A stretch of 64,000 bases of DNA from Vicinamibacterales bacterium (GCA_035550595.1 DASZOV010000138.1:245-64244); one strand, 5' to 3'. Counted from the stretch's first letter, positions 39,049 to 59,347 are shown. The notes: generated by a model not told the origin, from the letters alone. Made by a program: numbers and translations.

Positions 39049-39320
39049 GAACGTGGCGACATGGCCAATCGAATATTAGACCCGAACCGCGGCGACGTCT
39101 CGGAACCGGCCAGCGCCACGCGCGCGGCGCCAACCCGACCTCGAGTGGACCGGTCGGACCTTCAAGTCGAATAGATCATACCACAGCGTGATCTTCGGAC
39201 TGACAGCCGACACGACTCGTGACTCGACGGCGTCGCCGGATAGCGAGATTGAGGCCGTTGGGTCGTGTATCGAATGCACAACCGGCGCGACGGCCAAGCG
39301 CCGGCCGATGGTGATATGAG

Positions 39321-39370
39321 TTGTCATTGGTAGAACCACAAGTATTCTAAATATACATGAGGACTGATAT
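39321..39370 (+). promoter_or_regulatory. candidate promoter (TTGTCA-N16-TATTCT) with a TGGT-N3-ACCA box (39328-39338) and an ACTGATAT half-site (39363-39370)
   Basis: This is the only AT-rich patch of the 390-bp gntR / TIM-barrel divergent region. The boxes resemble the ACTGGTAT operators at 50744 and 54914. Confidence 0.35.
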
Positions 39371-39438
39371 GATGACGGCTTCATTCGGGTGTCGACGACG
39401 CCCGACGCGACGCCCTTGCCGGCGTCAGGGAGGCCGGA

Positions 39439-40395
39439 ATGCGGTACACACGCCGTGAGGTCGGGAAGCTCGCGCTGATGGGTCTGCCAGGCGCCGCATG
39501 GTTGGCGCGCTCACCACTACTACTTGCCGCGCAGGCCGACGCCAAGCCGAACTCGCGCTGGGCGGGCGTCGACATCGGCATGAACGTCCCCTACAACTTC
39601 GATCACAGCAACCGGATGAGCGGCGACGAGGTGCTCCGTCGATGCCTGCAACTGGGCGCCAGTGTCGTCGAATTGCGGTCGCAGCCGGTCGAGGCGTTCA
39701 TGGGCGCGCCCGCGCCGGTGTCGGGCGGTGGGCGCGGGATGACGGCCGAGCAACGCACGGCCAGAGACGCGGCGGCCGCGGCGCTCGACGCCTGGCGGAA
39801 GTCGGCGCCGATGGATCGCGCGCGCGCGTTTCGCCAGCAGTACGAGGCAGCCGGCGTGCGGATCGCGATCGTCAAGTTCGACGGCATCTTCGCCATGTCG
39901 GACGACGCCGTGGACTACTGTTTTGCGCTGGCGAAGACGCTGGGCGCGCGGGCGATCTCCTGTGAGATCTCGGTGCCCGACACCAAGCGCCTCGGACAGT
40001 TCGCCGACAAGCACCGGATGATGGTCGGCTATCACGGCCACGACGATACGACGCCCGCCGATTGGGAACAGGCGTTCCGCTACGCAAAATACAATGGCGC
40101 GAACGTCGACCTCGGGCATTTCGTGAGCGGCAACGACACGTCGCCCATCCCGTTCATCACCGGGTACCACGACCGCGTCACGCACGTACACGTGAAGGAC
40201 ATGAAGATGCACCGCGGCCCAGCCGTGCCGTTCGGCGAGGGCGACGTGCCGCTGAAGGAAGCGCTTCAGCTCATTCGCGATCGGCACTGGCCGATCCCCG
40301 GCATCATCGAATTCGAATACCGCGTGCCCGCGGGCTCGACGGCCATGGAAGAGATGGCCAAGTGCATGGCGTACACGAAGGCCTGCCTGGTCTGA
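39439..40395 (+). CDS. exported xylose-isomerase-like TIM-barrel (sugar phosphate isomerase/epimerase family) protein
   Basis: GGAGG lies 5 nt upstream. Tat-like N-terminus MRYTRREVGKLALMGLPGAAWLA...AAQA. Motifs VELRSQ..., GYHGHDD, VHVKDMK and IIEFEY are typical of AP_endonuc_2 barrels. Confidence 0.8.
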   Translation: MRYTRREVGKLALMGLPGAAWLARSPLLLAAQADAKPNSRWAGVDIGMNVPYNFDHSNRMSGDEVLRRCLQLGASVVELRSQPVEAFMGAPAPVSGGGRGMTAEQRTARDAAAAALDAWRKSAPMDRARAFRQQYEAAGVRIAIVKFDGIFAMSDDAVDYCFALAKTLGARAISCEISVPDTKRLGQFADKHRMMVGYHGHDDTTPADWEQAFRYAKYNGANVDLGHFVSGNDTSPIPFITGYHDRVTHVHVKDMKMHRGPAVPFGEGDVPLKEALQLIRDRHWPIPGIIEFEYRVPAGSTAMEEMAKCMAYTKACLV

Positions 40396-44142: not shown

Positions 44143-47100
44143 CTAGAACGAGAACCGGATCTGCGCCTGGATCGTGCGCGGATCCTGCCACGCGTTGGCC
44201 ATGCCGAAGCCCGCGTTGCTCGGCTTCGACCGCGACGACACGAGATTGCCGTCCGCGTCATACGGCAGGTTCACGGCCGTCGTCGACGTGTTCGGGTTGG
44301 CAAGGGTCACGGTGGTGTTGCGGCCCGTGATCTGCGCGCTGTTGGGCGCGTTGAAGATGTCGAGCCGGAACTGCGCGCTGCGGCCGCCGCCGAGCCGAAT
44401 CGTGCGAGCGATGGCGAAGTCGAGCACGCTCGACGCGCATCCTTGCGCGTAGCCGTTACCCGATTCGAGGCCCACGCTGCCGGGCAGCGGACCCGCGAAC
44501 GCCGAGGCGTTGAATTGCCGGTAGATGTCATCACTGCAGCCCGCGCCGGGATCGCCGACGAGGCGCACGCGGCCGGCGTAGTCAGGCGATCCCGTGATGT
44601 TCACGTTGCCGCCGTTGCTCTGGTACGAGTAGCCGACGGTGTAGTACGAGCCCGTCGACGCCGTCCAGATGCCCGACAACTGCCAGTCGTTGATGATGTA
44701 GCTCAGCACGCGCAACGCGGACCGATCGGCCTGCAGCGTCGGTAACTGCCAGACGAAGTTGGCCTTCAGGATGTGCGTCTGCGGGTGGTTGTCGCCGAGC
44801 AGATCCTGCGCGTCGCCCTGATCGGCACGTGTCGTATACGTGCCGTCGGGGTTGTGCTCGAGGCGCAAGCCAACGCTGCTGTGATCGTAGAGGCCGATCG
44901 TGTCGTTGAAGCCGAACGACAGGCCATGGACGAAGCGGCGCTGGAAGGAGATCTGCAGCGAGTGATACGTGCGCCAGCCAAACGACTGGTTGCTCGAGAT
45001 CGACCCGTAGCCTTGATAGGGGCGCATCAGGTTCGTCGTGACCGCCGTGGCACCCGGTGTCGTGCTCGGTGTGAGCGTCGGATCCTGGTATTGATCCAGA
45101 TACGCCGTGCCGAAGTCGACCGCGTTGATGTTCACGCCAGTGACGATGTTGTAGCCGTGCTGGCCGACGTAGGAGACGTCGAGCGTCGTGCTCCAGGGAA
45201 GCGCCATCTGCGCACCGGCATTCCACTGCGCCGAGGAGGGCAGCGGGCTGTCGTACTGGAAGATGTTCAGCGCCGGCGGTGTCTTCGTCGTCAAGCCACC
45301 CGATCCGAGGCTCTGCAACTGGCCGTACTGGACGGTCACGGTGCCGGAGAACGGCGGGTTGGAAGCCTGCGGGAAAACCGAGTTGCCGCTCGGCCGATCG
45401 AAGAACAGTCCACCGCCGCCGCGCAGCACGAGGCGCTGCGTGCCGGTCACGTCATAGGCCATGCCGAAGCGCGGCCCGACGGCGACCGCCGGCCACGTGT
45501 AAGTGGTCTTGGCGATGCCCTGCCCGGCCACGAAGAGGCCATTCGCCTCGTCGCCCGAGTTGGGCACGATCGTGCCGATCGCGAGCGCGGTGTTCGGTCC
45601 GAGGAGCGCACCGGTCACCGGATCGAGCGCCTGTCGCGCGCTGCCCGAACACGGGTAGCTATTGTTCGCACACCCCGCCTGGTAGAGCGCAGGTGCGGCC
45701 GATGGCTGCCACTTGTCGAGGAGGAAATTCGACGTCTGGCCGAGCTCGTCGTACTGCGGCTGCTGGTGGACGAACCGCAAGCCGTAGTCGAGCGTCAGCC
45801 GATCGGTGAACTTCCAGTTGTCCTGCACGAACCACTCGGTGTTGTTGTAAACCCAGTTGCCCTCGATGTACGCGGGCGCCTGCTGGTAGGAGTCGAAGGT
45901 GCCGAGGGCGGCATTCGCGAAGCCGAACTGCGCGTCGAGCGGGTTGTTCGTGTCGTTCGAGAAGTTGATCGACCCGAGCGCGTTGTTGTTGGGCTGCTCC
46001 GCCTTGTAACTGTGCGTGTTGTAGAAGCCCGCCTTCAGCGTGTGACGGCCGGCGACCTTGGTGAGGTTCACGGCGATGTCGTCGGTCCTGATCGTGTTCA
46101 GGTAGCCGGGGAAGCCGAGGTTCGGCGGGTTGTTGGTGACGCGGTTGCCCCAGGAGAAGCTCGGGGGCAGGAGCAGGCGCGAGCCGTCCCAGATCGGCGG
46201 GTTGACCTTGTTCAGCACGCGATACGCGTAGTAGTCGGGATTGATGACCGTGGCATCCGGGAAGATGTACGGGAGGTCGCCGAGCCCGATGTTGTTCCGG
46301 TCCGACGTCGGGTTCATCTGCAGCGCGTTCTGACAGAACTGCGGTGACCCGCCGACGAGCGCGCAGCCAGCTTCCTCGGCTTGGCTGTGGCCGTAAACCA
46401 CTTCCAGGAACGTCGTGGGGTTGACGGTGTAGTCGACCGTGGCCGCATCGGTGAACACGACCGGGTTCTGCTGCCGCGTATCGTTGAACCCGGGGATCGA
46501 TCCAAGGATCGTGCGATCGGCCTGCCCGTAGGCGGCGTATTTGAAGCTCGCGCGCAGCGCTGACCATGGCTGGTAATCGAGCTTGACGACCGGCTGCCAG
46601 CCCGTGAGTTTCTGCGTGGCACTCTGCGTCACGTAGTTGTAGGCGAGGCCCGTGCCGTCGATGTTCGGCGCCGGCCAGTGGTTCAGGATGTTCAACCCCG
46701 TCTGATACAGCCGATCGGCCGGAATGCGGCCGAGCACGCCGCCATCCGCGAAGCACGCGGATTGATCCGACGCGCTGCACGCCCCGGACTTCGACGCGTC
46801 GCGGATGTACGGATACAGATTGCCGAGGTTGTCGTAGGTCTGGGAGAAGTCGCCCTGGCGTTCGAGCACGGTCGGCATCCGCCACCGCTGCGTGTTGCCG
46901 CCCGTGGTCCGCGGGTTGAACTCCTGCGTGTAGAAGAAGAAGAGCTTGTTGTTCCCGCCGGGCTTGCCGATCGGACCGCCGATCGAATAACCCCAGTCGC
47001 GCTGCTTCGACACGCCCTTCGGGTCGCCGTTGAGGATGTTCCGCTCGCTGTTGGCGTTCCAGTCGGAGTTGCGTTCGACGTCGTACAGCGATCCGTGGAA

Positions 47101-47829
47101 CTGGTTCGTGCCGCTCTTGGTGATGGCGGCGACCTGCAGGCCGCTCGACCGGCCGTACTCCGCCTGATAGTTGGAGGTCAGCACCTTCACTTCGGCGATC
47201 GACTCGACGTTCACTTTCATGACCAGCCGGTTGCTGCCGGTGTCCATCGTCGAGACGCCGTCCATCGTGTAGTTGTTGTCACCACCGCCGGTCGACGCGG
47301 TGTCGCCGACGCGGTTCGTGCCGCTGACGCCGGGCGTGAGCGAGATGAGCGCGTCGAAACTGCGCGTCGCAATGGGCAGGTTCTGCACGGCATCGGTCGG
47401 CACGGTCATCGACCGCTCGCCGCTGGTCGTCTGGACGGCCAGCGCCTCGCCAGTGACGTCGACGACCTCCGATACGCCACCGACGTCGAGCGTGAGCCGG
47501 CCGACCGACGTGCGCGATCCGGCGTTGACCGTGATGCCTGACCGGTTCAACGTCTTGAAGCCCGACATCACGACCTCGATCGTGTACGTGTCGGCTGGCG
47601 TATTCGGCACAACGAAGTCGCCGGTTTCGTTCGTGACGACGACCGGAGACTTCGTGCCCTTCGTGGCGCTCACGAGCGTCACTGAGGCGCCGGGCAGGGC
47701 TCCGCCCTGCGCGTCCGTGATCGTGCCGACGACCGAACCGGTCGTGATCTGCGCACTGGCTGACACCGCCATCGTCGTCATGCCGACGAGTACGGCCGCC
47801 AGGGCAGCTATTCCACGCGTCCACCTCAT
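44143..47829 (-). CDS. TonB-dependent receptor with an N-terminal CarboxypepD_reg domain (TBDR-1)
   Basis: Signal peptide ...AVSASAQ. CarboxypepD_reg segment GTITDAQGGALPGASVTLV...TGDFVVPNTPADTYTIEV. Plug and long beta-barrel. C-terminal AQIRFSF. Confidence 0.9.
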   Translation of the reverse strand: MRWTRGIAALAAVLVGMTTMAVSASAQITTGSVVGTITDAQGGALPGASVTLVSATKGTKSPVVVTNETGDFVVPNTPADTYTIEVVMSGFKTLNRSGITVNAGSRTSVGRLTLDVGGVSEVVDVTGEALAVQTTSGERSMTVPTDAVQNLPIATRSFDALISLTPGVSGTNRVGDTASTGGGDNNYTMDGVSTMDTGSNRLVMKVNVESIAEVKVLTSNYQAEYGRSSGLQVAAITKSGTNQFHGSLYDVERNSDWNANSERNILNGDPKGVSKQRDWGYSIGGPIGKPGGNNKLFFFYTQEFNPRTTGGNTQRWRMPTVLERQGDFSQTYDNLGNLYPYIRDASKSGACSASDQSACFADGGVLGRIPADRLYQTGLNILNHWPAPNIDGTGLAYNYVTQSATQKLTGWQPVVKLDYQPWSALRASFKYAAYGQADRTILGSIPGFNDTRQQNPVVFTDAATVDYTVNPTTFLEVVYGHSQAEEAGCALVGGSPQFCQNALQMNPTSDRNNIGLGDLPYIFPDATVINPDYYAYRVLNKVNPPIWDGSRLLLPPSFSWGNRVTNNPPNLGFPGYLNTIRTDDIAVNLTKVAGRHTLKAGFYNTHSYKAEQPNNNALGSINFSNDTNNPLDAQFGFANAALGTFDSYQQAPAYIEGNWVYNNTEWFVQDNWKFTDRLTLDYGLRFVHQQPQYDELGQTSNFLLDKWQPSAAPALYQAGCANNSYPCSGSARQALDPVTGALLGPNTALAIGTIVPNSGDEANGLFVAGQGIAKTTYTWPAVAVGPRFGMAYDVTGTQRLVLRGGGGLFFDRPSGNSVFPQASNPPFSGTVTVQYGQLQSLGSGGLTTKTPPALNIFQYDSPLPSSAQWNAGAQMALPWSTTLDVSYVGQHGYNIVTGVNINAVDFGTAYLDQYQDPTLTPSTTPGATAVTTNLMRPYQGYGSISSNQSFGWRTYHSLQISFQRRFVHGLSFGFNDTIGLYDHSSVGLRLEHNPDGTYTTRADQGDAQDLLGDNHPQTHILKANFVWQLPTLQADRSALRVLSYIINDWQLSGIWTASTGSYYTVGYSYQSNGGNVNITGSPDYAGRVRLVGDPGAGCSDDIYRQFNASAFAGPLPGSVGLESGNGYAQGCASSVLDFAIARTIRLGGGRSAQFRLDIFNAPNSAQITGRNTTVTLANPNTSTTAVNLPYDADGNLVSSRSKPSNAGFGMANAWQDPRTIQAQIRFSF

Positions 47830-47917: not shown

Positions 47918-50680
47918 TTACTGCGCCGAGCGCTCGCGGGCGGCGAGCGCCAAGAGTTCGTCGTTCGTCCACGGCCGCGCGCGGCCGGCGGTCTCGGCAC
48001 GGACCGAGGCGATGGTCGACGGATTCACGGGCGATCCGGTCTGGCCCCACTCGCGCCGGACGTACGTCAGGACATCGGCAATCTGCTCGTCGTTCAGCAC
48101 CTGGCCGACCGGCGGCATCAGACCGATGGAGCCTTCTTTTCCGTTGAGAAGAATGCGCGCCGTCACGTCGGCGGGACCGAGCGCCAGCGTCGAGCCGACC
48201 AGGCTCGCCGCGACCTTTTCCTGCCCGCGGCCATCGGGCTGATGGCACGCCTGGCAGATGTTCTGGTAGACCGTTCGACCCGCGTCGAAGCGGCGCTGTT
48301 CGTCTGCCGTGAGTGGCGCGACCGGTGCCGGCGCGCCGGCTTTGCCTGGCCAGACGATGCGCGTCAGCACGCGCGTCGCACGCGGGGCGAGATCGCCGCC
48401 GTTCGAGGCGAGGGCCACGAACGCCGAGGGCTCACTCGTGAGCTGGAGGCTCCGTCCCGCGCCGCCGGCACGTCCGCGGCCAGCCGTCGTGGCTCGCGCC
48501 GCACCTGCGGGGCCGCCGGTCACGCCGCCGACGCGGTTGAGACTCGGCGTCGAGTACGCATACGCGCCACCCGGGCCGGCGCGTCCGCCAGGACACGTCG
48601 GACAAGGCGTCGCGCCAGCCGCGGGACCGGCCGCCGTCCGTCGTCCCGTGGGAGCCGGCGTGCCCGGCATCGGCGCGCCGATGAGCGCGACTTCCGCGCC
48701 GCGCAGCAGGGCCGATCGTTGCCACGCGGGCCGCGACGCGCTGGCCGCGCCGTCGAGCACGTGTGCCACGGTCGCGCTGTCGTCGCCGCGGACGATCGTC
48801 GCCGCCACGGCCGCGATCGCATCGGCGCGCTGCGGTGTTTCTTCGGACGAGGCCAGCAGTGCATCGAGCGTGGCCGTCTCGCTGCCGCTGATGCTGCTCA
48901 ACGCCGCGTCGAGCGCGACCGGGTCGTCCGAGTGGTGTTCGAGGAACGCCGCCACGGCCGTCGCGCGCGCGGCCGCCGGAAGCGTGCCGAGCGTGGCGCC
49001 GAGTTGATCGCGCACCGCCCAGTCGTTGTCGCTCGTGAGCGCGAGGACGGCGGTGCGCACCGCGGGATGGCTGTCGTCGCCGAGCCATCGCTCGGCGATG
49101 CGCAGCGCCGCCGCGCGCACGTCGCGTGACGGATCGGCGAGCGCATGGACGACCGTGTCCGGCTCGATCGCGCCCAGGCCGTCCAGCGTCCAGAGCGCCT
49201 GAACCCGCGTCCGGCCCTCGGTGGCCGTGCTCGCCAGCGTCGTGAGCGGACCGACGGCCGATCGGTCGCCGCGCTCGACGAGCACGCGCTCGGCCGTGTC
49301 TCGCCACCAGCCGTTCGGATGGGTGAGCGTCTGGACGAGCGTGGCGACCGGCGCGTTCGACAAGGCCGGAACGGTCGTGTCGCGCGTGAGGCCGTCGTAG
49401 ACGACGCGGTAGATGCGGCCGAGCCCGGTCGGGTGCTCGAGTTTGCGTCCGAGAATCTGGTCGCGCAGGTACTCGGTGACGTCGGCGCGCTGTTGAATGA
49501 TGCCGCGATACATGTCGACGACGTACAGCGTGCCGTCGGGCGCGTTCGCGATGAAGACCGGTCGGAAGCGCTCGTCGGTCGACGCCAGGAATTCGCCTTG
49601 CTCGTATGCCTTGCGTGCCTGGAGTCCCGATCCATCGTCGTTGACGATGATGCGGCTCACGAGATTGGCGGCCGGCTCGGCGACGAAGGCGTTGCCGTAG
49701 AGATCCGGCGGAAGACGGTCGCCGCGGTACACCATCGGCCCGCAGGCCGAGGTGAAGCGCGCGAGCGATCCGTCCGGTCGATCGATGCCCTGTTGATACG
49801 CGCGGTTGGTGCCCGGCGTCGGCCGCACCGGCCAGACCGTGTTGACCTGGCCATCCGTGCCATTGAGGCCTTCGTAGCTGCCACGCGTGCGGAGGAGCGC
49901 GGGATTGCGCGCGAAGTACTGCGTCGGCACGAGATCGACGTGCAGCGCCGACTCGTTCGAATTCCGGTAGATGTGCCCCGCGTCGTCCTGGGTCACGCCC
50001 CACTCGCCGCGTGAGAGCGTCGGTTCGGCGGTGAACTTGCCGTCCGCGAAATGGAACTCGACGTCGCTGTTCGACGTGTAAATGCGGTTGTCCATCGCCC
50101 AGAACAGCGAGCTGGCGTTTTCCTCGACGCGGCCTTCGCGGCGACCATATCCGTCGGTGAGCTGCTCTTTCGTGTCGACGTGCAGATCACCGTCGGTATC
50201 GCGCATGAGCCAGACGTAGGGCGGTTCGCCGACGAGCACGCCGTGCTCGGTGACCTTGATGGCGCGCGCGAGCACCAGGCCATCGGCGAACACCGTCCGC
50301 TTGTCCATCGTGCCGTCGTGATTCGTGTCCTCGAGGACGACGACGCGGCCGATGGGGGCGGGATTCGGCTCGACGGTGTCCAGGTCCTGGACGAAGCCGG
50401 GCATTTCGACCACCCAGAGGCGGCCGGACGCGTCCCAGTCCATCGCGACCGGGTCCTGCACGAGCGGCTCGCTCGCGACGAGCTCGAGGTGATAGCCGGG
50501 CGGCATGTAGAAGGTCTTCATGGCGTCGGCCGGTGACAGCGGCGGGGCCGAGTCCGGGCCGGTGGAGACCGACTGCACGCCCGGCGGCCACGGATGACTG
50601 GGCGACTGACTTTGCGCGCCGACCGCGGCAACGGCCGTTGCGCCGAGGAGGATGAGGACGACGGTATGCGATCGCGTCAC
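47918..50680 (-). CDS. PVC-type heme-binding CxxCH protein (periplasmic dehydrogenase-like, HEAT-like repeats, cytochrome c motif)
   Basis: GTG 50680 preceded by GAGG. Signal VVLILLGATAVAAVGAQS. FYMPPGYHLELVASEPLVQDPVAMDWDASGRLWVVEM. Heme motif YQNICQACHQPDGRG. The ORF-track start at 50878 runs through the promoter and is rejected. Confidence 0.8.
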   Translation of the reverse strand: MTRSHTVVLILLGATAVAAVGAQSQSPSHPWPPGVQSVSTGPDSAPPLSPADAMKTFYMPPGYHLELVASEPLVQDPVAMDWDASGRLWVVEMPGFVQDLDTVEPNPAPIGRVVVLEDTNHDGTMDKRTVFADGLVLARAIKVTEHGVLVGEPPYVWLMRDTDGDLHVDTKEQLTDGYGRREGRVEENASSLFWAMDNRIYTSNSDVEFHFADGKFTAEPTLSRGEWGVTQDDAGHIYRNSNESALHVDLVPTQYFARNPALLRTRGSYEGLNGTDGQVNTVWPVRPTPGTNRAYQQGIDRPDGSLARFTSACGPMVYRGDRLPPDLYGNAFVAEPAANLVSRIIVNDDGSGLQARKAYEQGEFLASTDERFRPVFIANAPDGTLYVVDMYRGIIQQRADVTEYLRDQILGRKLEHPTGLGRIYRVVYDGLTRDTTVPALSNAPVATLVQTLTHPNGWWRDTAERVLVERGDRSAVGPLTTLASTATEGRTRVQALWTLDGLGAIEPDTVVHALADPSRDVRAAALRIAERWLGDDSHPAVRTAVLALTSDNDWAVRDQLGATLGTLPAAARATAVAAFLEHHSDDPVALDAALSSISGSETATLDALLASSEETPQRADAIAAVAATIVRGDDSATVAHVLDGAASASRPAWQRSALLRGAEVALIGAPMPGTPAPTGRRTAAGPAAGATPCPTCPGGRAGPGGAYAYSTPSLNRVGGVTGGPAGAARATTAGRGRAGGAGRSLQLTSEPSAFVALASNGGDLAPRATRVLTRIVWPGKAGAPAPVAPLTADEQRRFDAGRTVYQNICQACHQPDGRGQEKVAASLVGSTLALGPADVTARILLNGKEGSIGLMPPVGQVLNDEQIADVLTYVRREWGQTGSPVNPSTIASVRAETAGRARPWTNDELLALAARERSAQ

Positions 50681-50743
50681 AGGGACCTCGAAACGCGGGG
50701 AATCGCGACGGGGCGATTCAAGTGGATAAACGTTTATTCGTTT

Positions 50744-50803
50744 ACTGGTATTACATATCATACCAGTCGGCGCACTATAGTCGATTGCCGATTGGCGCGT
50801 CAA
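50744..50803 (-). promoter_or_regulatory. promoter P1 (TTGACG-N18-TATAGT) with perfect palindromic operator ACTGGTAT-N8-ATACCAGT 6 nt downstream of the -10
   Basis: On the + strand: palindrome at 50744-50767, -10 complement ACTATA at 50774-50779, -35 complement CGTCAA at 50798-50803. It lies 64 nt upstream of GTG 50680. Confidence 0.6.
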
Positions 50804-51064
50804 GCGACAAAGTCGTCGAAGAGAACCGACGGGATTGTCGGCGAATTTCCTCGTATTTTGGGCTGATTGCGCGCGCATCGCCCTCGCGTGCCAGGACGGT
50901 TCGCGCCACGGATCGAAGGCGGGCCGTGACGTTCAGTGGTGTACCAATATTTCAGAAGAGAGACATAGAGGATGAACCTTCTCGCGATTCACCACAGGCA
51001 GTGCGCACGCTCGTTCGGCGCCTGCCGAGGCGTCGACGAGCGTGCGCTCCAGGGGCGGCCGGGA

Positions 51065-51106
51065 GCCGCGGGAAGGGACACCGGCCGGCGTCCCGGGCCC
51101 CGCGGC
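51065..51106 (-). terminator. compound GC stem-loop after TBDR-2 (outer GCCGCGGG/CCCGCGGC, inner GGGAC/GTCCC)
   Basis: Lies 12 nt downstream of the TBDR-2 stop on the coding strand. Confidence 0.4.
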
Positions 51107-51117
51107 CGGAGAGATCG

Positions 51118-54100
51118 TCAGAACGAGAAGCGAATCTGTGCCTGCACCGTGCGCGGCACCTGATAGCCGTTGGCGACGCCGAAGCCCGCGTTGCTCGGCA
51201 GCGATCGCGACGTGATCAGGTTGCCGTTCGCGTCGAAGGGCAGATTGAGCGGCGCGTCGGGCGCATTCGGATTGGCCAGCGTCATCGTCGTGTTCCGTCC
51301 CGTGATGCTCGCCTGATTGGGCGCATTGAACGCGTCGACACGCAGTTGGACCGAGCGGCTGCCGCCCAGACGGATGGTGCGGCTCAACGACAGATTGAGG
51401 ACGCTCGAGAAGCACCCATCCAGATAGCCGACGCCGGAATCGAGCCCGACGCTGCCGACCGCCGGTCCAAGGAACGCGGCGGTGTTGAATTGCCGGAACC
51501 GGTCGTCGCTGCACCCAGCGCCGGGATCGCCGTTGATCCGCACGCGTGCCGCGTAGTCAGGCGACCCGGTGAGATTGATGCTCGATCCGTTGCTCTGGTA
51601 GCTGAAGCCCACGGTGTACGGACTGCCGGTCGACGCCGTCCAGATCCCGGCGATCTGCCAGTCATTGGCGACGACGGCCAACGCGCGCAGCACTTTCTGC
51701 TGGCTCGTGATCGTCGGCAGCGTCCACACGAAGTTCGTGTTCATCGTGTGCCGGACGAGCGAGGCGTTCGTGCCGAGGAGCGCGTCGGCCTGCGCCTGAT
51801 CGCTGCGGATCGTATAGGTGCCGTCGGCGTTGTGCTCGAGGCGAGGCGTGGTGTTCGTCGTGTTCGACAAGCCGATCGTGTCGACGAAGCCGAACGAGAG
51901 GCCGTGCGTGAACCGGCGCTGCAGCGAGATCTGGATCGAGTGGTACCAGCTCCAACCGACGGCCGACAACTGGCGAATGGCACCGTAGCCCTGGATGGCG
52001 CGGAGCATGTTGGTCGAGACGGCCGTGGCGCCGGGAACGGCGCTCGGGGGAAGCGTCGGATCCTGGAACTCCGGGAGGAAGGCCGTCCCGAGATCGATGG
52101 CGTTGATGTTGACCGACTGCTGCGTGTCCCAGGCGTGCTGGCCGACGTACTCGACGTCGATCGTCGACGACAACGGCAGCGCGAGTTGGACGCCGCCGTT
52201 CCACTGCACGGACTTCGGCAGCGGCAGATCGTGCTGCACGTCGGAGATCGTGGGCGCGCCGTTCAAGAGCAGGCCGGTTGTGCCGAGCGTCTGCAACTGG
52301 CCGTATTGCACGGTGGTCTGCACGGTGGCCGGCGGGTTGGTGACCTGCTCGGACGCCGTGAACTGCGGTCGATCGAAAAAGAGGCCCGCGCCGCCACGCA
52401 GCACCACGCGCTGTTCGCCGGTGAGGTCGTAGGTCATGCCGAATCGCGGCTCGATGCCGACCGCCGGATAGGAGTACGTCGCCGCCGCGCCGGGCACGTA
52501 GATGCCGTTCAGCGGGTCGCCCGTGTCGGGGACGATCGTGCCGATGGCGAGCGCCGTGCTGGGACCGAGCAGCGCGCCCGTGAGCGGGTTCATGGCCTGG
52601 CGGTCGCGCCCCGAGCACGGATAGGCGCCGTTCGCGCAGCCGGCCGCGTAGAGGAGCGGCGCGTCGGCAGGCGAGTACTGATCGAGGATGAAACTGGACT
52701 CGTGGCCGCTCGCATCGTATTGCGCGGCCTGGTGCGCGAAGCGCAGGCCGTAGTCGAGCGTCAGCGCCTTGTTGACCTTCCAGTTGTCCTGCACGTACCA
52801 CTCGGCGTTGTTGTAGATGTACCGGCCCTCGACGTACGACGAGGCCTGGCTGTACGAGTCGAAGATGCCGAGCACGGCGTTCGCGTAGCCGAACGAGGTG
52901 TCGAACGGGTTGTTCGTGTCATTCGCGAAGTTCAGCGTGCCGAAGAACGGATTGCTGTTGTCCTGCTCCTTCTTCACGCTGTGCGTGTTGTAGAAGCCCG
53001 CCTTGAGCGTATGGGCGCCGGCGACTTTCGTGAGACTCACCGAGACGTCCTGCGTCGGGTTCGTGTTCAGGAAGCCGGGGAAGAGGATGCTCGGCGGCGC
53101 GTTGGCCACGCGGTTGCCCCACTGGAACGTCGGCGCCTTGAGGATCCGCGTGCCGTCCCAGAACGGGGGATTGAGCCCATTCAGAATTTCGTACGCGTAC
53201 GAGCTGTGATCGAGGACCGTCGCGTCTGGAAAGAGCAATGGCAGATCGCCCAGGCCCGCGTTGTTCATGTTCGAGATGTCATTGGTGGGGATGCCACTCT
53301 GGCAGAAGACCGGCGCCCCGCCTCGCAGCGCGCATCCCGCTTCCTCGTTCGTGCTGTGGCCGTAGGTGACCTCGAAGAACGTCGTCGGACTGAAGCTGTA
53401 GTCCACGGTCGTCGCGAGCGTCGAGACGATGGGGCGTGGCTGGATCGTGTCGTTGAAGCCCGGCAGCGTGCCGAGAATCACCTGCGCACGCTGATCCCAG
53501 GCCGCGTACTTCACCGAGGCCCGGAGCGCCGGCTTCGGTTGATAGTCAATCTTGATGACGGGCTGATACGCCAACAGGTGCTGGACGGGCGCCGTGATCT
53601 GGTAGTTGTAGGGCAGGCCGGCGCCGTCCATGTTCGGCAGCGGATATTGATTGAGGACCGCGATGCCCGGCGCGTAGAGCCGGTTCGCCGGCACGCGGCC
53701 GAGGACGCCGCCGTCGGCGAAACACCCGGCCGTGTTGCTCGCCGAACACGGCGCGGCGAGCGTCGGATCCTTGATGTACGGATAGCGATTGCCGAGGTTG
53801 TCGTAGGACTGCGAGAAGTCGCCCGCGCGTTCGAGCGCCGTGGGCATCCGGAAGCGCCGCGTGTTGCCTCCTGAAGTGAGCGGCTGGAATTCGTGCGCGT
53901 AAAAGAAGAAGAGCTTGTTGTTGCCACCGGGTTTGCCGACCGGTCCGCCAATCGAGTAGCCCCACTCGCGGGACTTCGAGACCGGTTTCGGGTTGCCGTT
54001 GAGGATGTTGGTCTTGCTGTTGGCGCCCCAGTCCGAGTTGTTCTCGACGTCGTAGAGTGATCCGTGGAACTGGTTCGTGCCGCTCTTGGTGACAGCCGTC

Positions 54101-54783
54101 ATCTGCAGGCCGCTCGATCGTCCATACTCCGCTTGATAGTTCGACGTCAGCACCTTCACTTCCGCGATCGACTCGACGTTGACCTGCATCAGCAGGCGGT
54201 TGCTGCCTGTGTCGAGCGTCGAGACGCCGTCCATCATGAAGTTGCTGTCGCCGCCACCGCCGATGCGGCTCGTGCCGCTCACGCCGGGCGCGAGCGAGGC
54301 CAGCGCGTCGAAGCTGCGCGTGGCGATGGGCAGGTTCTGGACGGCATCCGGCTGCACGGTGAAGGACCGCTCGCCGGACGTCGCCTGGATGAGCGGCGCT
54401 TCGCCGGTGACGTCGACGACTTCCTGCACGCCGCCGACGTCGAGCGTGAGCCGGCCAACCGACGTGCGCGATCCGGCGTTGACCGTGATGCCCGACCGGT
54501 TCAACGTCTTGAAGCCCGACATCACGACCTCGATCGTGTACGTGTCGGCTGGCGTATTCGGCACGACGAAATCGCCGGTTTCGTTCGTGACGACGACCGG
54601 GGACTTCGTGCCCTTGGTGGCGCTCACGAGCGTCACCGAGGCGCCGGGCAGGGCCCCGCCCTGCGCGTCCGTGATCGTGCCGACGACCGAACCGGTCGTG
54701 ATCTGCGCGTTGACCGGCGCCGCCATCGTCGCGATACCGACGAGGGCGACCGCGAGGACGGTTCTTCCACGCGTCCACGTCAT
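51118..54783 (-). CDS. TonB-dependent receptor with an N-terminal CarboxypepD_reg domain (TBDR-2)
   Basis: ATG 54783 preceded by GGAGG. Signal ...TMAAPVNAQ. Same architecture as TBDR-1. C-terminal AQIRFSF. Confidence 0.9.
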   Translation of the reverse strand: MTWTRGRTVLAVALVGIATMAAPVNAQITTGSVVGTITDAQGGALPGASVTLVSATKGTKSPVVVTNETGDFVVPNTPADTYTIEVVMSGFKTLNRSGITVNAGSRTSVGRLTLDVGGVQEVVDVTGEAPLIQATSGERSFTVQPDAVQNLPIATRSFDALASLAPGVSGTSRIGGGGDSNFMMDGVSTLDTGSNRLLMQVNVESIAEVKVLTSNYQAEYGRSSGLQMTAVTKSGTNQFHGSLYDVENNSDWGANSKTNILNGNPKPVSKSREWGYSIGGPVGKPGGNNKLFFFYAHEFQPLTSGGNTRRFRMPTALERAGDFSQSYDNLGNRYPYIKDPTLAAPCSASNTAGCFADGGVLGRVPANRLYAPGIAVLNQYPLPNMDGAGLPYNYQITAPVQHLLAYQPVIKIDYQPKPALRASVKYAAWDQRAQVILGTLPGFNDTIQPRPIVSTLATTVDYSFSPTTFFEVTYGHSTNEEAGCALRGGAPVFCQSGIPTNDISNMNNAGLGDLPLLFPDATVLDHSSYAYEILNGLNPPFWDGTRILKAPTFQWGNRVANAPPSILFPGFLNTNPTQDVSVSLTKVAGAHTLKAGFYNTHSVKKEQDNSNPFFGTLNFANDTNNPFDTSFGYANAVLGIFDSYSQASSYVEGRYIYNNAEWYVQDNWKVNKALTLDYGLRFAHQAAQYDASGHESSFILDQYSPADAPLLYAAGCANGAYPCSGRDRQAMNPLTGALLGPSTALAIGTIVPDTGDPLNGIYVPGAAATYSYPAVGIEPRFGMTYDLTGEQRVVLRGGAGLFFDRPQFTASEQVTNPPATVQTTVQYGQLQTLGTTGLLLNGAPTISDVQHDLPLPKSVQWNGGVQLALPLSSTIDVEYVGQHAWDTQQSVNINAIDLGTAFLPEFQDPTLPPSAVPGATAVSTNMLRAIQGYGAIRQLSAVGWSWYHSIQISLQRRFTHGLSFGFVDTIGLSNTTNTTPRLEHNADGTYTIRSDQAQADALLGTNASLVRHTMNTNFVWTLPTITSQQKVLRALAVVANDWQIAGIWTASTGSPYTVGFSYQSNGSSINLTGSPDYAARVRINGDPGAGCSDDRFRQFNTAAFLGPAVGSVGLDSGVGYLDGCFSSVLNLSLSRTIRLGGSRSVQLRVDAFNAPNQASITGRNTTMTLANPNAPDAPLNLPFDANGNLITSRSLPSNAGFGVANGYQVPRTVQAQIRFSF

Positions 54784-54913
54784 GGGGCCTCCTGCAGGTC
54801 TCGCGGCGTTCCCATGGCGTCGTTTGCAACGGTCGATGCACGGCACGTCACGGGGGCCTCGAAACGCGAGGGAATCGCGGATGCGATTCGAGTGGATTAA
54901 CTATGAGTCGTTA

Positions 54914-54972
54914 ACTGGTATGACATATCATACCAATCGGCGAACTATAGTGGATCGCGACTGGGCCGTCAA
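54914..54972 (-). promoter_or_regulatory. promoter P2 (TTGACG-N17-TATAGT) with operator ACTGGTAT-N8-ATACCAAT 6 nt downstream of the -10
   Basis: On the + strand: operator at 54914-54937, ACTATA at 54944-54949, CGTCAA at 54967-54972. Homologous to P1 over ~130 bp. Confidence 0.6.
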
Positions 54973-55151
54973 GCGCGGAGGTTGTCGCAGGTTGTCGCGC
55001 CTGATGTTGAAAATAGACGGTAATTTGCGCTGAATACTGCTCGATGACGCGCCACGGTTCCTTGCCTGACAGGGGCGGAGCAGCGGACCAAAATATTCAG
55101 TGGTGTGCCAATACTTTAATTTGCTTTGAAAGAGGATGAACCTTGTGGCGT

Positions 55152-55190
55152 GCTGCGGGCGGGCACGCCGGTCGGCGGCCCGCCCGCAGC
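55152..55190 (-). terminator. stem-loop GCTGCGGGCGGGC...GCCCGCCCGCAGC after TBDR-3
   Basis: 13-bp perfect outer stem plus an inner 4-bp stem. Lies 12 nt downstream of the TBDR-3 stop. Confidence 0.5.
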
Positions 55191-55201
55191 CGGAGGGACG
55201 A

Positions 55202-58200
55202 TCAGAACGAGAGGCGGATCTGGGCTTGAATCGTGCGCGGATCCTGCCATCCGTTGGCCATGCCGAAGCCCGCGTTGCTCGGCTTCGATCGCGACGACAC
55301 GAGATTGCCGTCCGCGTCGTACGGCAGATTGACGGGCGTCGTCGAGGCGGTCGGGTTGGCGAGCGTCATCGACGTGTTGCGGCCCGTGATCTCGGCGCTG
55401 TTGGGCGCGTTGAAGATGTCGAGCCGGAACTGCGCGCTGCGACCGCCGCCGAGCCGAATCGTACGAGCGATGGCGAGGTCGAGCACGCTCGAGGCGCAGC
55501 CCTGCAGATACCCGTTGCCCGATTCGAGGCCGACGCTGCCGGGCAGCGGACCGGCGAACGCCGCCACGTCGAACTGCCGGTAGATGTCATCGCTGCAGCC
55601 CGCACCCGGATCGCCGACGAGCCGCACGCGCGCGCCGTAGTCGGGCGACCCGGTGAGGTTCACGTTGCCGCCGTTGCTCTGGTACGAGTAGCCGACGGTG
55701 TAGTAGCCAGCCGTCGACGCCGTCCAGATCCCCGACAACTGCCAGTCGTTGATGATGTAGCTCAACACGCGCAAGCCCGACCGATCGGTCTGGAGCGTCG
55801 GCAGTTGCCAGACGAAGTTGGCCTTGAGGATGTGCGTCTGCGGATGGTTGTCGCCGAGCAGATCCTGCGCTTCGCCCTGATCGGCGCGCGTCGTGTACGT
55901 GCCGTCGGGGTTGTGCTCGAGGCGCAGGCCGACGTTGCTGTGGTCGTACAGTCCGATCGTGTCGTTGAAACCGAACGACAGGCCGTGCACGAAACGCCGC
56001 TGGAACGAGAGCTGGATCGAGTGATACGTGCGCCAGCCGATGGCCTGGTTGCTCGAGATCGATCCGTAGCCCTGATAGGGCCTCATCAGGTTCGTGGTCA
56101 CGGCCGTGGCGCCAGGCGTCGTGCTCGGCTTGAGCGTCGGATCCTGGTACTGATCCAGATATGCCGTGCCGAAGTCGACGGCGTTGATGTTCACGCCGGT
56201 GACGATGTTGTAGCCGTGCTGGCCGACGTAAGAGACGTCGAGTGTCGTGCTCCACGGCAGCGCCATCTGCGCGCCCGCATTCCATTGCGCCGACGAAGGC
56301 AACGGGCTGTCGTACTGGAAGACGTTCAGCGACGGCGCCGCGGTCGTCGTCAGGCCTCCGGATCCGAGGCTCTGCAACTGGCCGTACTGCACCGTGACGG
56401 CACCGGAGAACGGCGGATTCGCCGCTTGTGCGAAGACGGAGTTGCCACTCGGCCGATCGAAGAACAGTCCACCGCCGCCGCGCACGACGAGTCGCTGCGT
56501 GCCGGTCACGTCATAGGCCAGGCCGAAGCGCGGTCCAACGGCCACGGCCGGCCACGTGTAGGTCGTCTTCGCGATGCCCTGACCAGCCACGAACAAGCCG
56601 TTCGCTTCGTCACCCGAGTTGGGCACGATCGTCCCGATCGCGAGCGCGGTGTTCGGTCCAAGCAGTTCGCCGGTGACCGGGTTGAGCGCCTGTCGCGCGC
56701 TGCCCGAGCACGGGTAGCTGTCGTTTGCGCAACCTGGCAGATAGAGCGCCGGCGCGGCCGACGGCTGCCATTTGTCGACGAGGAAGTTCGACGTCTGGCC
56801 GAGCTCGTCGTACTGCGGCTGCTGGTGGACGAACCGCAAGCCGTAGTCGAGTGTCAGTCGATCGGTGAGCTTCCAGTTGTCTTGCGCGAACCACTCGGCG
56901 TTGTTGTAGACCCAGTTGCCTTCGATGTAGGCCGGCGCCTGCTGATACGAATCGAAGATGCCGAGCGCGGCATTGGCGAAGCCGTACTGCGCGTCGATGG
57001 GGTTGTTCGTGTCGTTCGAGAAGTTGATCGACCCGAGCGCGTTGTTGTTGGCCTGCTGCGCCTTGTAGCTGTGCTGGTTGTAGAAGCCCACCTTGATCGT
57101 GTGCCGGCCCGCGATCTTCGTCAGGTTCACCGCGAGGTCGTGCGTCGAGATCGTGTTCAGGTAGCCGGGGAAGCCGAGATTGGGCGGCGCGTACGGCGAG
57201 CTCGACGTGGTGATGCGATTGCCCCACGAAAAGCTCGGCGGCAGGAGCAGGCGCGAGCCGTCCCAGATCGGCGGGTTGACCTTGTTCAACACGCGATACG
57301 CGTAGTAGTCGGGATCGATGACGGTCGCATCCGGGAAGATGTACGGCAGACCGCCCAGCCCGATGTTGTTGCGATTCGACGTCGGGTTCATCTGCAGCGC
57401 GCTCTGGCAGAACTGCGGTGATCCGCCGACGAGCGCGCACCCGGCCTCTTCTGCGAAGCTGTGGCCGTAGGTGCCTTCGAGGAACATCGTCGGCGAGATC
57501 GTGTAGTCGATCGTCGCCGCGTCCGTGTAGACGACAGGGTTCTGCTGTTGGGTATCGTTGAACCCGGGAATGGAGCCGAGGATGGTGCGATCGGCCTGGC
57601 CGTAGGCGGCGTACTTGAAGCTCGCGCGCAGCGCCGACCACGGCTGGTAATCGAGCTTGACGACCGGCTGCCAGCCCGTCAGTTTCTGCGTCGCGCTTTG
57701 CGTCACGTAGTTGTAGGCGAGCCCCGTGCCGTCGATGTTCGGCGTTGGCCACATGTTGAGGATGTTCAACCCGGTCTGGTACAGCCGATCGGCCGGAATG
57801 CGGCCGAGCACGCCGCCATCGGCGAAGCACGCCGACTGATCCGACGCGCTGCACGCGCCAGGCTTCGACGCGTCGCGGATGTACGGATACAGATTGCCGA
57901 GGTTGTCGTAGGTCTGCGAGAAGTCGCCCTGGCGCTCGAGCACGGTCGGCATCCGCCACCGCTGCGTGTTGCCGCCCGTCGTGCGCGGGTTGAACTCCTG
58001 CGTGTAATAAAAGAAAAGCTTGTTGGTGCCGCCGGGCTTGCCGACCGGACCGCCGATTGAATAGCCCCAGTCGCGTTGTTTCGACACGCCCTTCGGGTCG
58101 CCGTTGAGGATGTTGCGCTCGCTGTTGGCGTTCCAGTCGGAGTTGCGTTCGACGTCGTACAGCGATCCGTGGAAGTGGTTCGATCCGCTCTTCGTGATGG

Positions 58201-58903
58201 CCGCCACCTGCAGGCCGCTCGACCGGCCGTATTCCGCTTGGTAGTTGGACGTCAGCACTTTCACTTCGGCGATCGACTCGACGTTCACCTTCATCACGAG
58301 TCGATTGCTGCCGGTGTCCATCGTCGAGACGCCGTCCATCATGAAGTTGTTGTCGCTGCCGCCGGTCGACGCCGTGTCGCCGACGCGGTTCGTGCCGCTG
58401 ACGCCGGGCGTGAGCGAGATGAGCGCGTCGAAGCTCCGTGAGGCGATGGGCAGATTCTCGACGGCCTCGGTCGTGACCGTCATCGATCGCTCACCGCTCG
58501 TCGTCTGGATGGTCGGGACTTCGCTCGTCACGTTCACGACTTCGGTCGCGCCGCCGACCTCGAGCGTCAGCGTGCCGAGCGCCACGCGCGAGCCGGCGTC
58601 CACCTGGACGCCCGTGTGCTTGAGCGTCTTGAAGGCGGACATCTCGACCTGCACGGTGTAGGTGTCAGGGGCGACGTTCGGAAACACGAAGTCGCCCGTG
58701 CCGTTGGTGACGACGGGTGTCGAGGTGGTGCCCTTGGTTTCACTGGTCAAGGTGATCGTCGCACCCGGGATCACACCTCCCGTGGTGTCTTTGACGGTGC
58801 CGCTGAGCGTGCTCGTCGCGACCTGTCCCCAGGCGGGACTCGACCACGCAGCGAGCACGAGGGAAAGGCCGACGACGACTGTCTTGAGCCTGACTCGTTC
58901 CAT
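55202..58903 (-). CDS. TonB-dependent receptor with an N-terminal CarboxypepD_reg domain (TBDR-3)
   Basis: GGAGG lies 8 nt upstream. Signal ...AAWSSPAWGQ. The barrel is nearly identical to TBDR-1. C-terminal AQIRLSF. Confidence 0.9.
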   Translation of the reverse strand: MERVRLKTVVVGLSLVLAAWSSPAWGQVATSTLSGTVKDTTGGVIPGATITLTSETKGTTSTPVVTNGTGDFVFPNVAPDTYTVQVEMSAFKTLKHTGVQVDAGSRVALGTLTLEVGGATEVVNVTSEVPTIQTTSGERSMTVTTEAVENLPIASRSFDALISLTPGVSGTNRVGDTASTGGSDNNFMMDGVSTMDTGSNRLVMKVNVESIAEVKVLTSNYQAEYGRSSGLQVAAITKSGSNHFHGSLYDVERNSDWNANSERNILNGDPKGVSKQRDWGYSIGGPVGKPGGTNKLFFYYTQEFNPRTTGGNTQRWRMPTVLERQGDFSQTYDNLGNLYPYIRDASKPGACSASDQSACFADGGVLGRIPADRLYQTGLNILNMWPTPNIDGTGLAYNYVTQSATQKLTGWQPVVKLDYQPWSALRASFKYAAYGQADRTILGSIPGFNDTQQQNPVVYTDAATIDYTISPTMFLEGTYGHSFAEEAGCALVGGSPQFCQSALQMNPTSNRNNIGLGGLPYIFPDATVIDPDYYAYRVLNKVNPPIWDGSRLLLPPSFSWGNRITTSSSPYAPPNLGFPGYLNTISTHDLAVNLTKIAGRHTIKVGFYNQHSYKAQQANNNALGSINFSNDTNNPIDAQYGFANAALGIFDSYQQAPAYIEGNWVYNNAEWFAQDNWKLTDRLTLDYGLRFVHQQPQYDELGQTSNFLVDKWQPSAAPALYLPGCANDSYPCSGSARQALNPVTGELLGPNTALAIGTIVPNSGDEANGLFVAGQGIAKTTYTWPAVAVGPRFGLAYDVTGTQRLVVRGGGGLFFDRPSGNSVFAQAANPPFSGAVTVQYGQLQSLGSGGLTTTAAPSLNVFQYDSPLPSSAQWNAGAQMALPWSTTLDVSYVGQHGYNIVTGVNINAVDFGTAYLDQYQDPTLKPSTTPGATAVTTNLMRPYQGYGSISSNQAIGWRTYHSIQLSFQRRFVHGLSFGFNDTIGLYDHSNVGLRLEHNPDGTYTTRADQGEAQDLLGDNHPQTHILKANFVWQLPTLQTDRSGLRVLSYIINDWQLSGIWTASTAGYYTVGYSYQSNGGNVNLTGSPDYGARVRLVGDPGAGCSDDIYRQFDVAAFAGPLPGSVGLESGNGYLQGCASSVLDLAIARTIRLGGGRSAQFRLDIFNAPNSAEITGRNTSMTLANPTASTTPVNLPYDADGNLVSSRSKPSNAGFGMANGWQDPRTIQAQIRLSF

Positions 58904-59069: not shown

Positions 59070-59120
59070 ACTGATAATACCAGTTCGTCGGCATTGTACA
59101 TAAAGTCGACCATCGTGCAA
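59070..59120 (-). promoter_or_regulatory. promoter P3 (TTGCAC-N16-TACAAT) with compact inverted repeat ACTGATA-N1-TACCAGT 8 nt downstream of the -10
   Basis: On the + strand: IR at 59070-59084 (ATACCAGT core at 59077-59084), ATTGTA at 59093-59098, GTGCAA at 59115-59120. Confidence 0.5.
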
Positions 59121-59315: not shown

Positions 59316-59347
59316 GACGGGACTCCGGCGCGTGCCGGAGTCCCGTC
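59316..59347 (-). terminator. terminator hairpin GACGGGACTCCGGC-GCGT-GCCGGAGTCCCGTC after TBDR-4
   Basis: Perfect 14-bp stem 8 nt after the stop, followed on the coding strand by TGTCGTTTCG. Confidence 0.6.

Follow-up and report, generated by a model that had tools for sequence, protein, structure and literature searches.

Putative GntR/FadR-type operators and the receptor gene cluster

Regulators of the GntR/FadR type recognise half-sites of the form TKGT/ACMA (PMC4494728), and the FadR consensus is TGGT-N3-ACCA. The DNA-contact residues of FadR are R35, T44, R45, T46, T47, R49 and H65 (PMC4259882), together with G66 (PMC2602784). The second half of a site can be degenerate; E. coli fadD FadR site 2, in the form used as an EMSA probe (AGCTGGTATGATGAGTT), has such a right half. 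The main site of LldR covers positions -4 to +13, with a weak second site adjoining it (PMC2602784). Sites of this family frequently have additional half-sites, at 7-12 nt from their centre, and those of NanR (TGGTATAW) and NagQ (HutC; TGGTATT) are direct repeats that recur about every 8 nt (PMC4494728). In the case of Atu1419, an FCD regulator, a palindrome and a degenerate palindrome lie 109-190 bp apart, and the DNA between them is looped.

Acidobacteria of the class Vicinamibacteria are abundant in soil and possess very large families of TonB-dependent-type receptors; to our knowledge, almost nothing has been established experimentally about transcriptional control in this group. The window (the whole 64-kb stretch of DNA that was analysed; 65-71% GC) contains, in its 38-64 kb part, a minus-strand cluster of genes for receptors, a DUF7133 protein, enzymes and a GntR+FCD regulator. 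Its homologs indicate an origin among Vicinamibacterales-like Acidobacteria. The genes and the gene remnant to which the text refers are as follows:

38263-39048, minus strand: GntR-A, FadR-subfamily protein (GntR wHTH and FCD domains, by Pfam), candidate repressor
44143-47829, minus strand: TBDR1, receptor gene that follows the P1 gene
47918-50680, minus strand: P1 gene, secreted DUF7133/HEAT/cytochrome c protein with signal peptide, start codon GTG at 50680
50996-51061, minus strand: remnant (67 nt) of gntR-B, a second GntR/FCD paralog, from a blastn match of 87% identity to L001 5961-6027 and a tblastn trace
51118-54783, minus strand: P2 gene, TBDR2 (CarboxypepD_reg and OMP_b-brl_4), start codon ATG at 54783
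55202-58903, minus strand: P3 gene, TBDR3
59356-63036, minus strand: P4 gene, TBDR4

TBDR4, TBDR3 and TBDR2 are each CarboxypepD_reg + OMP_b-brl_4 receptors of ~1230 aa. The cluster also encodes a TIM-barrel protein, a GFO/IDH/MocA oxidoreductase and a class-III aminotransferase, together with a divergent TIM-barrel gene. GntR-A is the sole intact regulator gene within the 38-64 kb cluster, at a distance of 12-25 kb from the four receptor-cluster promoters described below. An earlier note had called it the only regulator in the locus, which holds for the cluster and not for the window at large: genes for an ArsR, two PadR proteins and a histidine kinase are encoded further off, in their own units beside their own transporter genes.

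The solved structures nearest to GntR-A are a putative regulator (7c7e), PdhR (9jpj, E=1e-16), NanR (6on4), LldR (2di3) and FadR. By sequence, PdhR, LldR and GlcC-type repressors are among its closest characterised relatives, and homologs are named ‘repressor for pyruvate dehydrogenase complex’ in the source records; however, the predicted targets in this locus are receptors and periplasmic sugar-oxidation genes, rather than genes for lactate or pyruvate metabolism. Compared with E. coli FadR, GntR-A is 27% identical and has a PdhR-like FCD effector domain and unrelated target genes. In an alignment of E. coli FadR with five Acidobacterial proteins, no substitution was seen at R35, R45, T46, R49, H65 or G66, and the Acidobacterial proteins have Ser in place of T44 and T47. 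The analysis as a whole supports a putative GntR/FadR-type operator system at the promoters of the receptor genes, which would be a known kind of switch in an unusual local layout.

Anatomy and conservation of the P1 and P2 palindromes

Two promoter-associated palindromes, together with a distal site upstream of the first, are located as follows:

50774-50803, minus strand: P1 sigma70-type promoter, TTGACG-N18-TATAGT (-35, 50798-50803; -10, 50774-50779)
50744-50767, minus strand: P1 palindrome of 24 bp, ACTGGTAT-GATATGTA-ATACCAGT, perfect 8-N8-8
50752-50767, minus strand: P1 conserved box (left arm and middle); conservation with L001 stops after GATATGTA
50744-50751, minus strand: P1 right arm, ATACCAGT, lineage-specific
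50936-50946, minus strand: distal site TGGTACACCAC (TGGT-N2-ACCA), about 180 bp upstream of the P1 box
54914-54972, minus strand: P2, TTGACG-N17-TATAGT-TCGCCG-ATTGGTAT-GATATGTC-ATACCAGT, paralogous copy of P1 (-35, 54967-54972; -10, 54944-54949; palindrome, 54914-54937)

Read on the minus strand from 50803 to 50744, P1 is TTGACG-N18-TATAGT-GCGCCG-ACTGGTAT-GATATGTA-ATACCAGT. Minus-strand reads reproduced the sequences, coordinates and promoter hexamers that had been given for P1 and P2 exactly, and shuffling placed them far beyond chance. Within the window, the 22-mer palindrome pattern occurs at P1 and P2 only (0 expected; 100 shuffles), and ACTGGTAT is present in five copies against 0.17 expected in 64 kb, namely both P1 arms, one P2 arm, and one copy each at P3 and P4, every one of them a short way past a -10-like box. 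P1, P2 and P4 are among the five promoters found in a consensus scan of the window (1.4 expected), and sigma70-type hexamers with a 16-18 nt spacer are present at P1-P4 and kept in relatives. Judged from spacing, transcription from P1 would start at the A of ACTGG, seven nt past TATAGT. The palindrome is perfect at P1, as had been described, whereas P2 has one arm mismatch, and the P2 palindrome extends inward to 10-N4-10.

P2 is a duplicate of the P1 promoter and leader in front of another gene. The two sequences are 82% identical from the -35 element to about +95, and upstream of -35 the similarity vanishes (23/60 positions; 38%). The copied stretch takes in the GAGG-N6-GTG context in which the P1 gene starts. 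At P2 this GTG does not serve as the start codon: it is in another frame, and translation of the receptor begins 68 nt downstream. As paralogs, P1 and P2 count as having a single origin and are not two independent occurrences, such that the ‘twin’ reported at P2 exists as a sequence and yet lends no independent support. Identity between the copies is 22/24 in the palindrome (8/8 in the right arm), 74% in the rest of the leader, and about 67% in the promoter spacer. A search for P2 orthologs by way of TBDR2 homologs returned nothing above 67% identity except the window’s own contig, and P2 therefore cannot be footprinted.

P1 is more amenable to comparison, given that a 94% ortholog of the DUF7133 protein is encoded on several JGI and NCBI contigs. 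Between the window and L001, the intergenic region at P1 is unalignable except for two islands: TGGTACACCAC, about 180 bp upstream of the box, and ATTCGAC-TATAGT-GCGCCG-ACTGGTATGATATGTA. The stretch TATAGT-GCGCCG-ACTGGTATGATATGTA is identical in the closest relatives (those with the 94% downstream protein), and L001 keeps the -35 and -10 elements of P1 while the spacer diverges. Conservation ends exactly where the window has the right arm ATACCAGT and the relatives read GTTTTCGT. L001-L003, L008 and L059-L063 carry the left arm and about 8 nt beyond it in identical form, and L064 and L009 still do so recognisably; in none of these loci does the orthologous P1 promoter have the right arm. What is conserved thus appears to be the left arm with some 8 nt beyond it, and the 8-N8-8 palindrome appears specific to the window’s lineage. 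The proposal that the palindrome as a whole is the operator unit thus lacks support from other species, in that orthologous P1 promoters in three other lineages carry only the left arm with about 8 nt. In L064, TTGACA-N17-TAGATT-N7-ATTGGTACGATATCAC precedes a DUF7133 gene, with an 86% GntR paralog in divergent orientation, and in L009, TTGACT-N16-TAACAT-N15-ATTGGTAGGAGATGT precedes a receptor gene whose divergent neighbour is a 58% GntR relative; the L009 box matches the P1 box at 12/15 positions, and its hexamer (TAGGAG) is no longer -10-like. DUF7133 homologs of 62-65% identity (L004-L006) are in unrelated operon-internal contexts with no promoter to compare, and a scan of metagenome DNA with CGCCGAYTGGTATGATATGT recovered three chance matches in unrelated contigs of 36-53% GC and no orthologs.

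Inverted TKGT/ACMA boxes, by the criterion of PMC4494728, are present as TGGT...ACCA in P1 and P2 and as TGGT...ATCA in P3 and P4, consistent with the claim that the arms are half-sites of GntR/FadR type. The GT-N12-AC spacing, which had been fitted to the general GntR pattern GT-Nx-AC, is not FadR-subfamily geometry: GT and AC are 12 nt apart in the 24-bp palindrome as against 3 nt in the subfamily (2 in some groups), and measured between the centres of TGGT and ACCA the distance is 16 bp, compared with 7 bp in FadR-type sites. At this distance a single FadR-like dimer should not span the palindrome, and two bound dimers would clash over the 8 nt in the middle. The arms are thus canonical half-sites, while the whole 24-mer is not a canonical FadR-type site. 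The right half of the conserved P1-type box (ATATG, ATATC or AGATG) is itself conserved yet unlike ACCA, and a symmetric dimer model therefore leaves this box unexplained.

With one strong half and a non-ACCA right half, the P1-type box resembles E. coli fadD site 2. The likeness to the E. coli FadR operators (fadBA, ATCTGGTACGACCAGAT; fadD site 2, AGCTGGTATGATGAGTT) extends to the CTGGT half-site and the A/T-rich centre common to both, to a position at or overlapping the core promoter, and to tolerance of a degenerate second half. The sites of NanR and NagQ are similar in that the TGGTAT unit is read as a separate box; however, their repeats are direct, whereas the strong boxes of P1 and P2 are inverted and the middle 8 nt contain no recognisable box. 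The right arm can be read as one of the family’s ‘additional half-sites’ (Suvorova et al., 2015), as it is located about 12.5 nt from the centre of CTGGT-ATG-ATATG, although the ‘additional’ box of P1 is as strong as the primary one, whose second half is weak. LexA-type (CTGT-N8-ACAG), LacI-type and ECF-sigma readings of the box were also considered, and by eye their spacing and core bases do not fit.

Related boxes and the GntR clade

The left-arm box has the consensus A(C/T)TGGTA(T/C)nAT and is located 6-9 nt past the -10 element at all four receptor-cluster promoters; both promoters flanking the GntR gene carry a weaker form of it. The sites other than P1 and P2 are:

59070-59120, minus strand: P3, TTGCAC-N16-TACAAT-N8 followed by box ACTGGTATTATCAGT, conserved in L001/L059 (-35, 59115-59120; -10, 59093-59098; box, 59070-59084)
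63256-63307, minus strand: P4, TTGATT-N16-TATAAT-N9 followed by box ACTGGTATCATCACT, L059 ortholog ACTTGTATTATCACT (-35, 63302-63307; -10, 63280-63285; box, 63256-63270)
39326-39340, plus strand: ATTGGT-AGA-ACCACA, an operator of canonical FadR type, where the GntR and TIM-barrel genes diverge
39363-39373, plus strand: P5 box ACTGATATGAT, upstream of the TIM-barrel gene (39439-40395)
39174-39184, minus strand: P6 box GTGGTATGATC, upstream of the GntR gene, marking the boundary between diverged upstream sequence and conserved leader

The P3 box, CTGGT-ATT-ATCAG, is an imperfect palindrome of FadR type (7-1-7), and P3 and P4 share the form CTGGT-N3-ATCA(G/C), with one mismatch to the subfamily motif TKGT-N3-ACMA. 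The spacing of GT to AC is N3 at P3, at P4 and at 39328, and N2 at the distal 50936 site. TGGT-N3-AYCA has five matches in the window, at four sites, against 1.08 expected, and three of these four sites are in control regions of this locus. When TGGT-N3-ACCA was counted over all loci compared, its frequency was, by rough estimate, not far above chance for DNA of 67% GC, for which reason positional evidence alone was relied on. At the 39326 operator, L007 and the window keep the half-sites ATTGGT-nnn-ACCACA, and the 3-nt centre is changed (AGA to CTC). The neighbouring P5 box probably doubles as an extended -10 element, in the arrangement TTCTAA-N17-TGaTATGAT. A short upstream ORF from 39370, inside the P5 box, was considered as a candidate and set aside, as its frame is not kept in L007.

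In close relatives of the window’s lineage, the gene for a second GntR protein, gntR-B (67% identical to the window’s GntR protein), sits between TBDR3 and P1, and it is intact directly upstream of P1 in L001, L059 and L008. In an 80% relative, gntR-B is divergent from a DUF7133-receptor operon, and both GntR paralogs are present together in one relative MAG. Another copy of gntR-B could be encoded elsewhere in the window’s genome. The earlier note had assigned the palindromes to the GntR protein at 38263-39048; this remains the best candidate binder on the grounds of synteny, the flanking TGGT-N3-ACCA site and the contact residues, although in relatives gntR-B is the regulator most closely tied to P1. 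Since the recognition helices of GntR-A and gntR-B are nearly identical, GntR-A is plausible as a stand-in for gntR-B.

Synteny between the GntR clade and DUF7133/receptor operons extends over at least five lineages (loci L001/L059, L064, the P0123 locus, L009, L013 and L068). Members adjoin such operons in L013 and L068 and are located beside hexuronate genes in L066. In L013, the DUF7133/receptor divergon contains ATGTGGT-CAT-ACCACAT and ATTGGTAGTATCACAT; L068 has AATTGGTACGACCAC by its GntR gene; and L009 carries TTGGT-CAT-ACCTA. L066 has AGTGGTCTGACCTCT and AACTGGTATGACCACT, the latter a full palindrome centred on the start codon of the regulator, and its left 11 nt are the P1 box. Three palindromes were identified in L012, one of them about 180 bp upstream of its GntR gene. 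A single control locus (L069; n=1), a DUF7133-receptor divergon in which a sigma54 activator replaces the GntR protein, is without the box. More distant GntR relatives, of 50-54% identity (L010 and L011), have no clear TGGT sites beside the gene, and may differ in specificity.

Putative repression and alternative explanations

On the basis of these sequence comparisons, we posit that the arms are half-sites of an operator for a PdhR/FadR-like GntR repressor at the receptor-cluster promoters, to which we assign a probability of roughly 0.57. The arms would be strong half-sites (A-C/T-TGGTA-T) for a repressor clade that controls TonB-dependent-type receptors and periplasmic sugar-oxidation genes in Vicinamibacterales-like Acidobacteria. 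Bound repressor would cover about +1 to +15 (to +24 at P1 and P2) and block initiation or promoter escape, and a sugar-derived ligand on the FCD domain would, by analogy with the family, release it. The repressor geometry that had been proposed is in keeping with the position of the arms at the predicted start of a conserved sigma70-type promoter, and is comparable to the -4 to +13 site of LldR (PMC2602784). The ancestral P1 operator would have consisted of one strong half-site, a conserved non-symmetric stretch of 8-10 nt, and the conserved distal TGGT-N2-ACCA. The combination of a strong half-site with a distal site suggests cooperative or looped binding, for which Atu1419 provides a precedent: this tetrameric FCD/VanR-type GntR regulator of Agrobacterium fabrum has a promoter-overlapping and a distal site, similar to the site about 180 bp upstream at P1, although its motif (ATGTATACAT) differs. 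In the window’s lineage, the gntR-B gene beside P1 was lost by deletion, and P2 arose when a copy of the P1 promoter and leader came to stand before TBDR2; an inverted half-site now lies 8 nt beyond the first, forming the 8-N8-8 palindrome, and the surviving paralog GntR-A is the likely binder. The right arm could serve as an additional half-site, or else supply the 3' strand in a hairpin at the 5' end of the mRNA.

The latter option leads to a reading of the two-arm form as an element acting in RNA, whereby the mRNA would begin with the palindrome and a 5'-terminal stem-loop would slow 5'-end-dependent decay; the left arm would then be an ancestral DNA box, and the right arm would have been selected or retained for RNA pairing. 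The 5' hairpin of ompA protects its transcript from 5'-end-dependent decay, and P1 would likewise have a hairpin at the 5' end of an outer-membrane protein mRNA, given the predicted start. Folding energies of -9.8 and -10.5 kcal/mol (z = -3.3 and -3.9) mark the P1 and P2 hairpins as stable, and both differences between P1 and P2 in the 24-mer are compatible with pairing, C to U keeping a G.U pair and A to C adding a G-C pair. The P1 and P2 leaders contain three further hairpins, one of them with a compensatory A-T to T-A change, and another leader hairpin has identical stems (14/14) with different loops; the RNA reading also accounts for an arm spacing unlike FadR geometry. However, in contrast to the ompA-type stem-loop, the hairpin is not conserved in orthologs: the L001 ortholog lacks the 5' hairpin and its fold is not significant (z = -0.8), as is also the case for L064. 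There is no Rfam match, and at a permissive threshold the region 50400-55300 gave only noise (Chloroflexi-1, E=0.4, on the other strand). The hairpins are shared only by the two paralogous copies, a pair of one origin that cannot reveal covariation, and the start site on which the stem-loop depends is taken from spacing. In addition, the box at P3-P6 and in other lineages is left unexplained, so this reading, which we consider unlikely, would at best add to the operator. The right arm might instead be functionless, a recent small inverted duplication of the left arm (of the template-switch type) that was copied from P1 to P2. Its absence from all relatives and the single origin of P1 and P2 fit this explanation, but the palindrome is kept at 22/24, with the right arm at 8/8, while the spacer and leader drifted to 67-74%, and we regard it as very improbable.

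With respect to the box itself, a role as a promoter element would be an extended -10 (TGnTAyNAT), serving as a downstream second promoter or a sigma70-dependent promoter-proximal pause. All eight matches to TGNTANNNT in the window are non-coding, and six of them are the boxes; each left-arm box points in the direction of its gene and matches TGnTAyNAT, and the variable positions of the box correspond to the weakly conserved -9 and -10 positions of the -10 hexamer. The P5 and P6 boxes are at the boundary between diverged sequence and conserved leader and are the only plausible -10 elements there; in both genomes compared, the P5 box is preceded by TTCTAA at a distance of 17 nt. A true extended -10, TGcTACAAT, is conserved at 63377. 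Against this, the L009 box TGGTAGGAG (TAGGAG) and the P4 box of L059, CTTGTATTAT (TTGTATTAT), break the pattern and keep TKGT. A -10 element would not need the AC/AT that precedes TGG or the G at -13, both of which are conserved, and the right arms copy ACTGGTAT without the critical final T (TATTAC, TATGAC). Conserved -35/-10 pairs of canonical form are already present upstream of the box at P1-P4, in L064 and in L009, and the same 11 nt form half of the full palindrome at the GntR gene of L066. We therefore view the promoter-element reading as rather improbable for the boxes as a class. The fadD FadR site of E. coli includes TGGTATGAT, which indicates that operator and extended -10 roles can coexist, and such a dual role is likely at P5 and P6. 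A different regulator, encoded outside the window and suited to half-sites 16 bp apart, would render the resemblance to GntR sites coincidental; it would be favoured by a spacing that does not fit FadR-type dimers, by the genome coverage of 64.7 kb, and by the deletion of gntR-B. Nevertheless, the half-site is identical to those of canonical palindromes at GntR-clade genes, GntR synteny is maintained across lineages, and the single GntR-less control locus has no box, all of which makes such a regulator highly unlikely.

The GntR operator reading would be extended if the 8-N8-8 palindrome were a dual-purpose element rewired after the loss of gntR-B, combining non-canonical binding of GntR-A with a 5' hairpin in the mRNA. 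The second inverted half-site would be one and a half helical turns away, and two dimers or a tetramer would bind, possibly looping to the distal site. We hold this to be rather doubtful, but if it were true, one 24-nt sequence would set both transcription and transcript stability of outer-membrane receptor genes. The two-arm form would carry greater weight only in the event that a non-canonical binding mode or a combined DNA/RNA element proves true.

For the operator system as posited, six box/operator sites in the window, a matching regulator clade and an architecture kept in at least five lineages amount to a testable regulon prediction, with specificity assessed within the 64-kb window and the loci of relatives that were compared. 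The locus also records a small evolutionary event in which a repressor paralog was deleted, a promoter was duplicated and a second half-site was gained; this could be informative on the adaptation of operators to the loss of their regulator, although the switch as such is of a well-known kind. The predicted regulon comprises the receptors and a periplasmic sugar-oxidation cluster, with DUF7133/cytochrome c, GFO/IDH/MocA, TIM-barrel and aminotransferase genes. In relatives, the cluster includes genes for 3-keto-disaccharide hydrolases.

Deletion of a regulator gene beside P1 and a distal site

Two features lie upstream of P1, one of the two paralogous minus-strand sigma70-type promoters (P1 and P2) that carry the palindrome:
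50936-50946, minus strand: distal TGGT-N2-ACCA site TGGTACACCAC, ~180 bp upstream of the P1 box
50996-51061: 67-nt gene remnant, left from a second GntR/FCD paralog

The remnant shares 87% nucleotide identity with the intact gene in L001, a locus of a close relative, and matches codons ~32-53 of that gene. On sequence comparison, relatives have a regulator gene next to P1 that is deleted in the lineage of the window. The distal site is one of only two islands conserved in the P1 intergenic region between the window and L001, and it may be a looping partner. In the hexuronate-type locus of a relative (L066), the centre of a predicted operator, AACTGGTATGACCACT (L066 9993-10010), falls on the ATG with which the GntR gene of that locus starts.

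Promoter leaders and receptor genes

The P1 and P2 promoter regions and the receptor genes show the following features:
50672-50743 and 54842-54913, minus strand: three further hairpins common to the P1 and P2 leaders
54979-54998, minus strand: tandem direct repeat GCGACAACCT x2, directly upstream of the P2 -35 box
59316-59347, minus strand: strong predicted intrinsic terminator (14-bp stem with 11 GC pairs) after the receptor gene TBDR4

In one of the three additional hairpins an A-T pair is T-A in the other leader, a compensatory change, and in another the stems are identical (14/14) and the loops differ; none of the three is conserved in the L001 ortholog. The GCGACAACCT repeat lies at the boundary at which P1-P2 similarity stops. 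For the TonB-dependent-type receptor gene TBDR2 (51118-54783), no homolog of >67% identity was found in a collection of 5.8 billion proteins, except on the 64.7-kb contig of the window itself. Its 3' flank (51055-51199) is similar to the 3' end of TBDR3 in L001, which suggests that TBDR2 was inserted via recombination between receptor paralogs. The terminator predicted behind TBDR4 implies that TBDR4 and TBDR3 would form separate transcription units.

Other genes and a divergent promoter

Further features of the window are:
5547-5621: tRNA-Gly(GCC) gene, the D-arm of which accounts for one TGGTAGAGT match in the window
5703-5776: tRNA-Cys(GCA) gene
23207-26491: second DUF7133 paralog (the other is encoded downstream of P1), with an F5/8 type C domain
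34694-38140, plus strand: 1148-aa ORF with coding-like GC3, without a Pfam match at E <= 1e-5
63377-63385, plus strand: TGcTACAAT, a predicted extended -10 that would serve the divergent TIM-barrel gene (from 63471)

This extended -10 lies within a block that is perfectly conserved in L059, another close-relative locus. At 12194-15301 and again at 28648-31673, a PadR regulator gene forms a pair with a gene for a MacB/FtsX-type permease.
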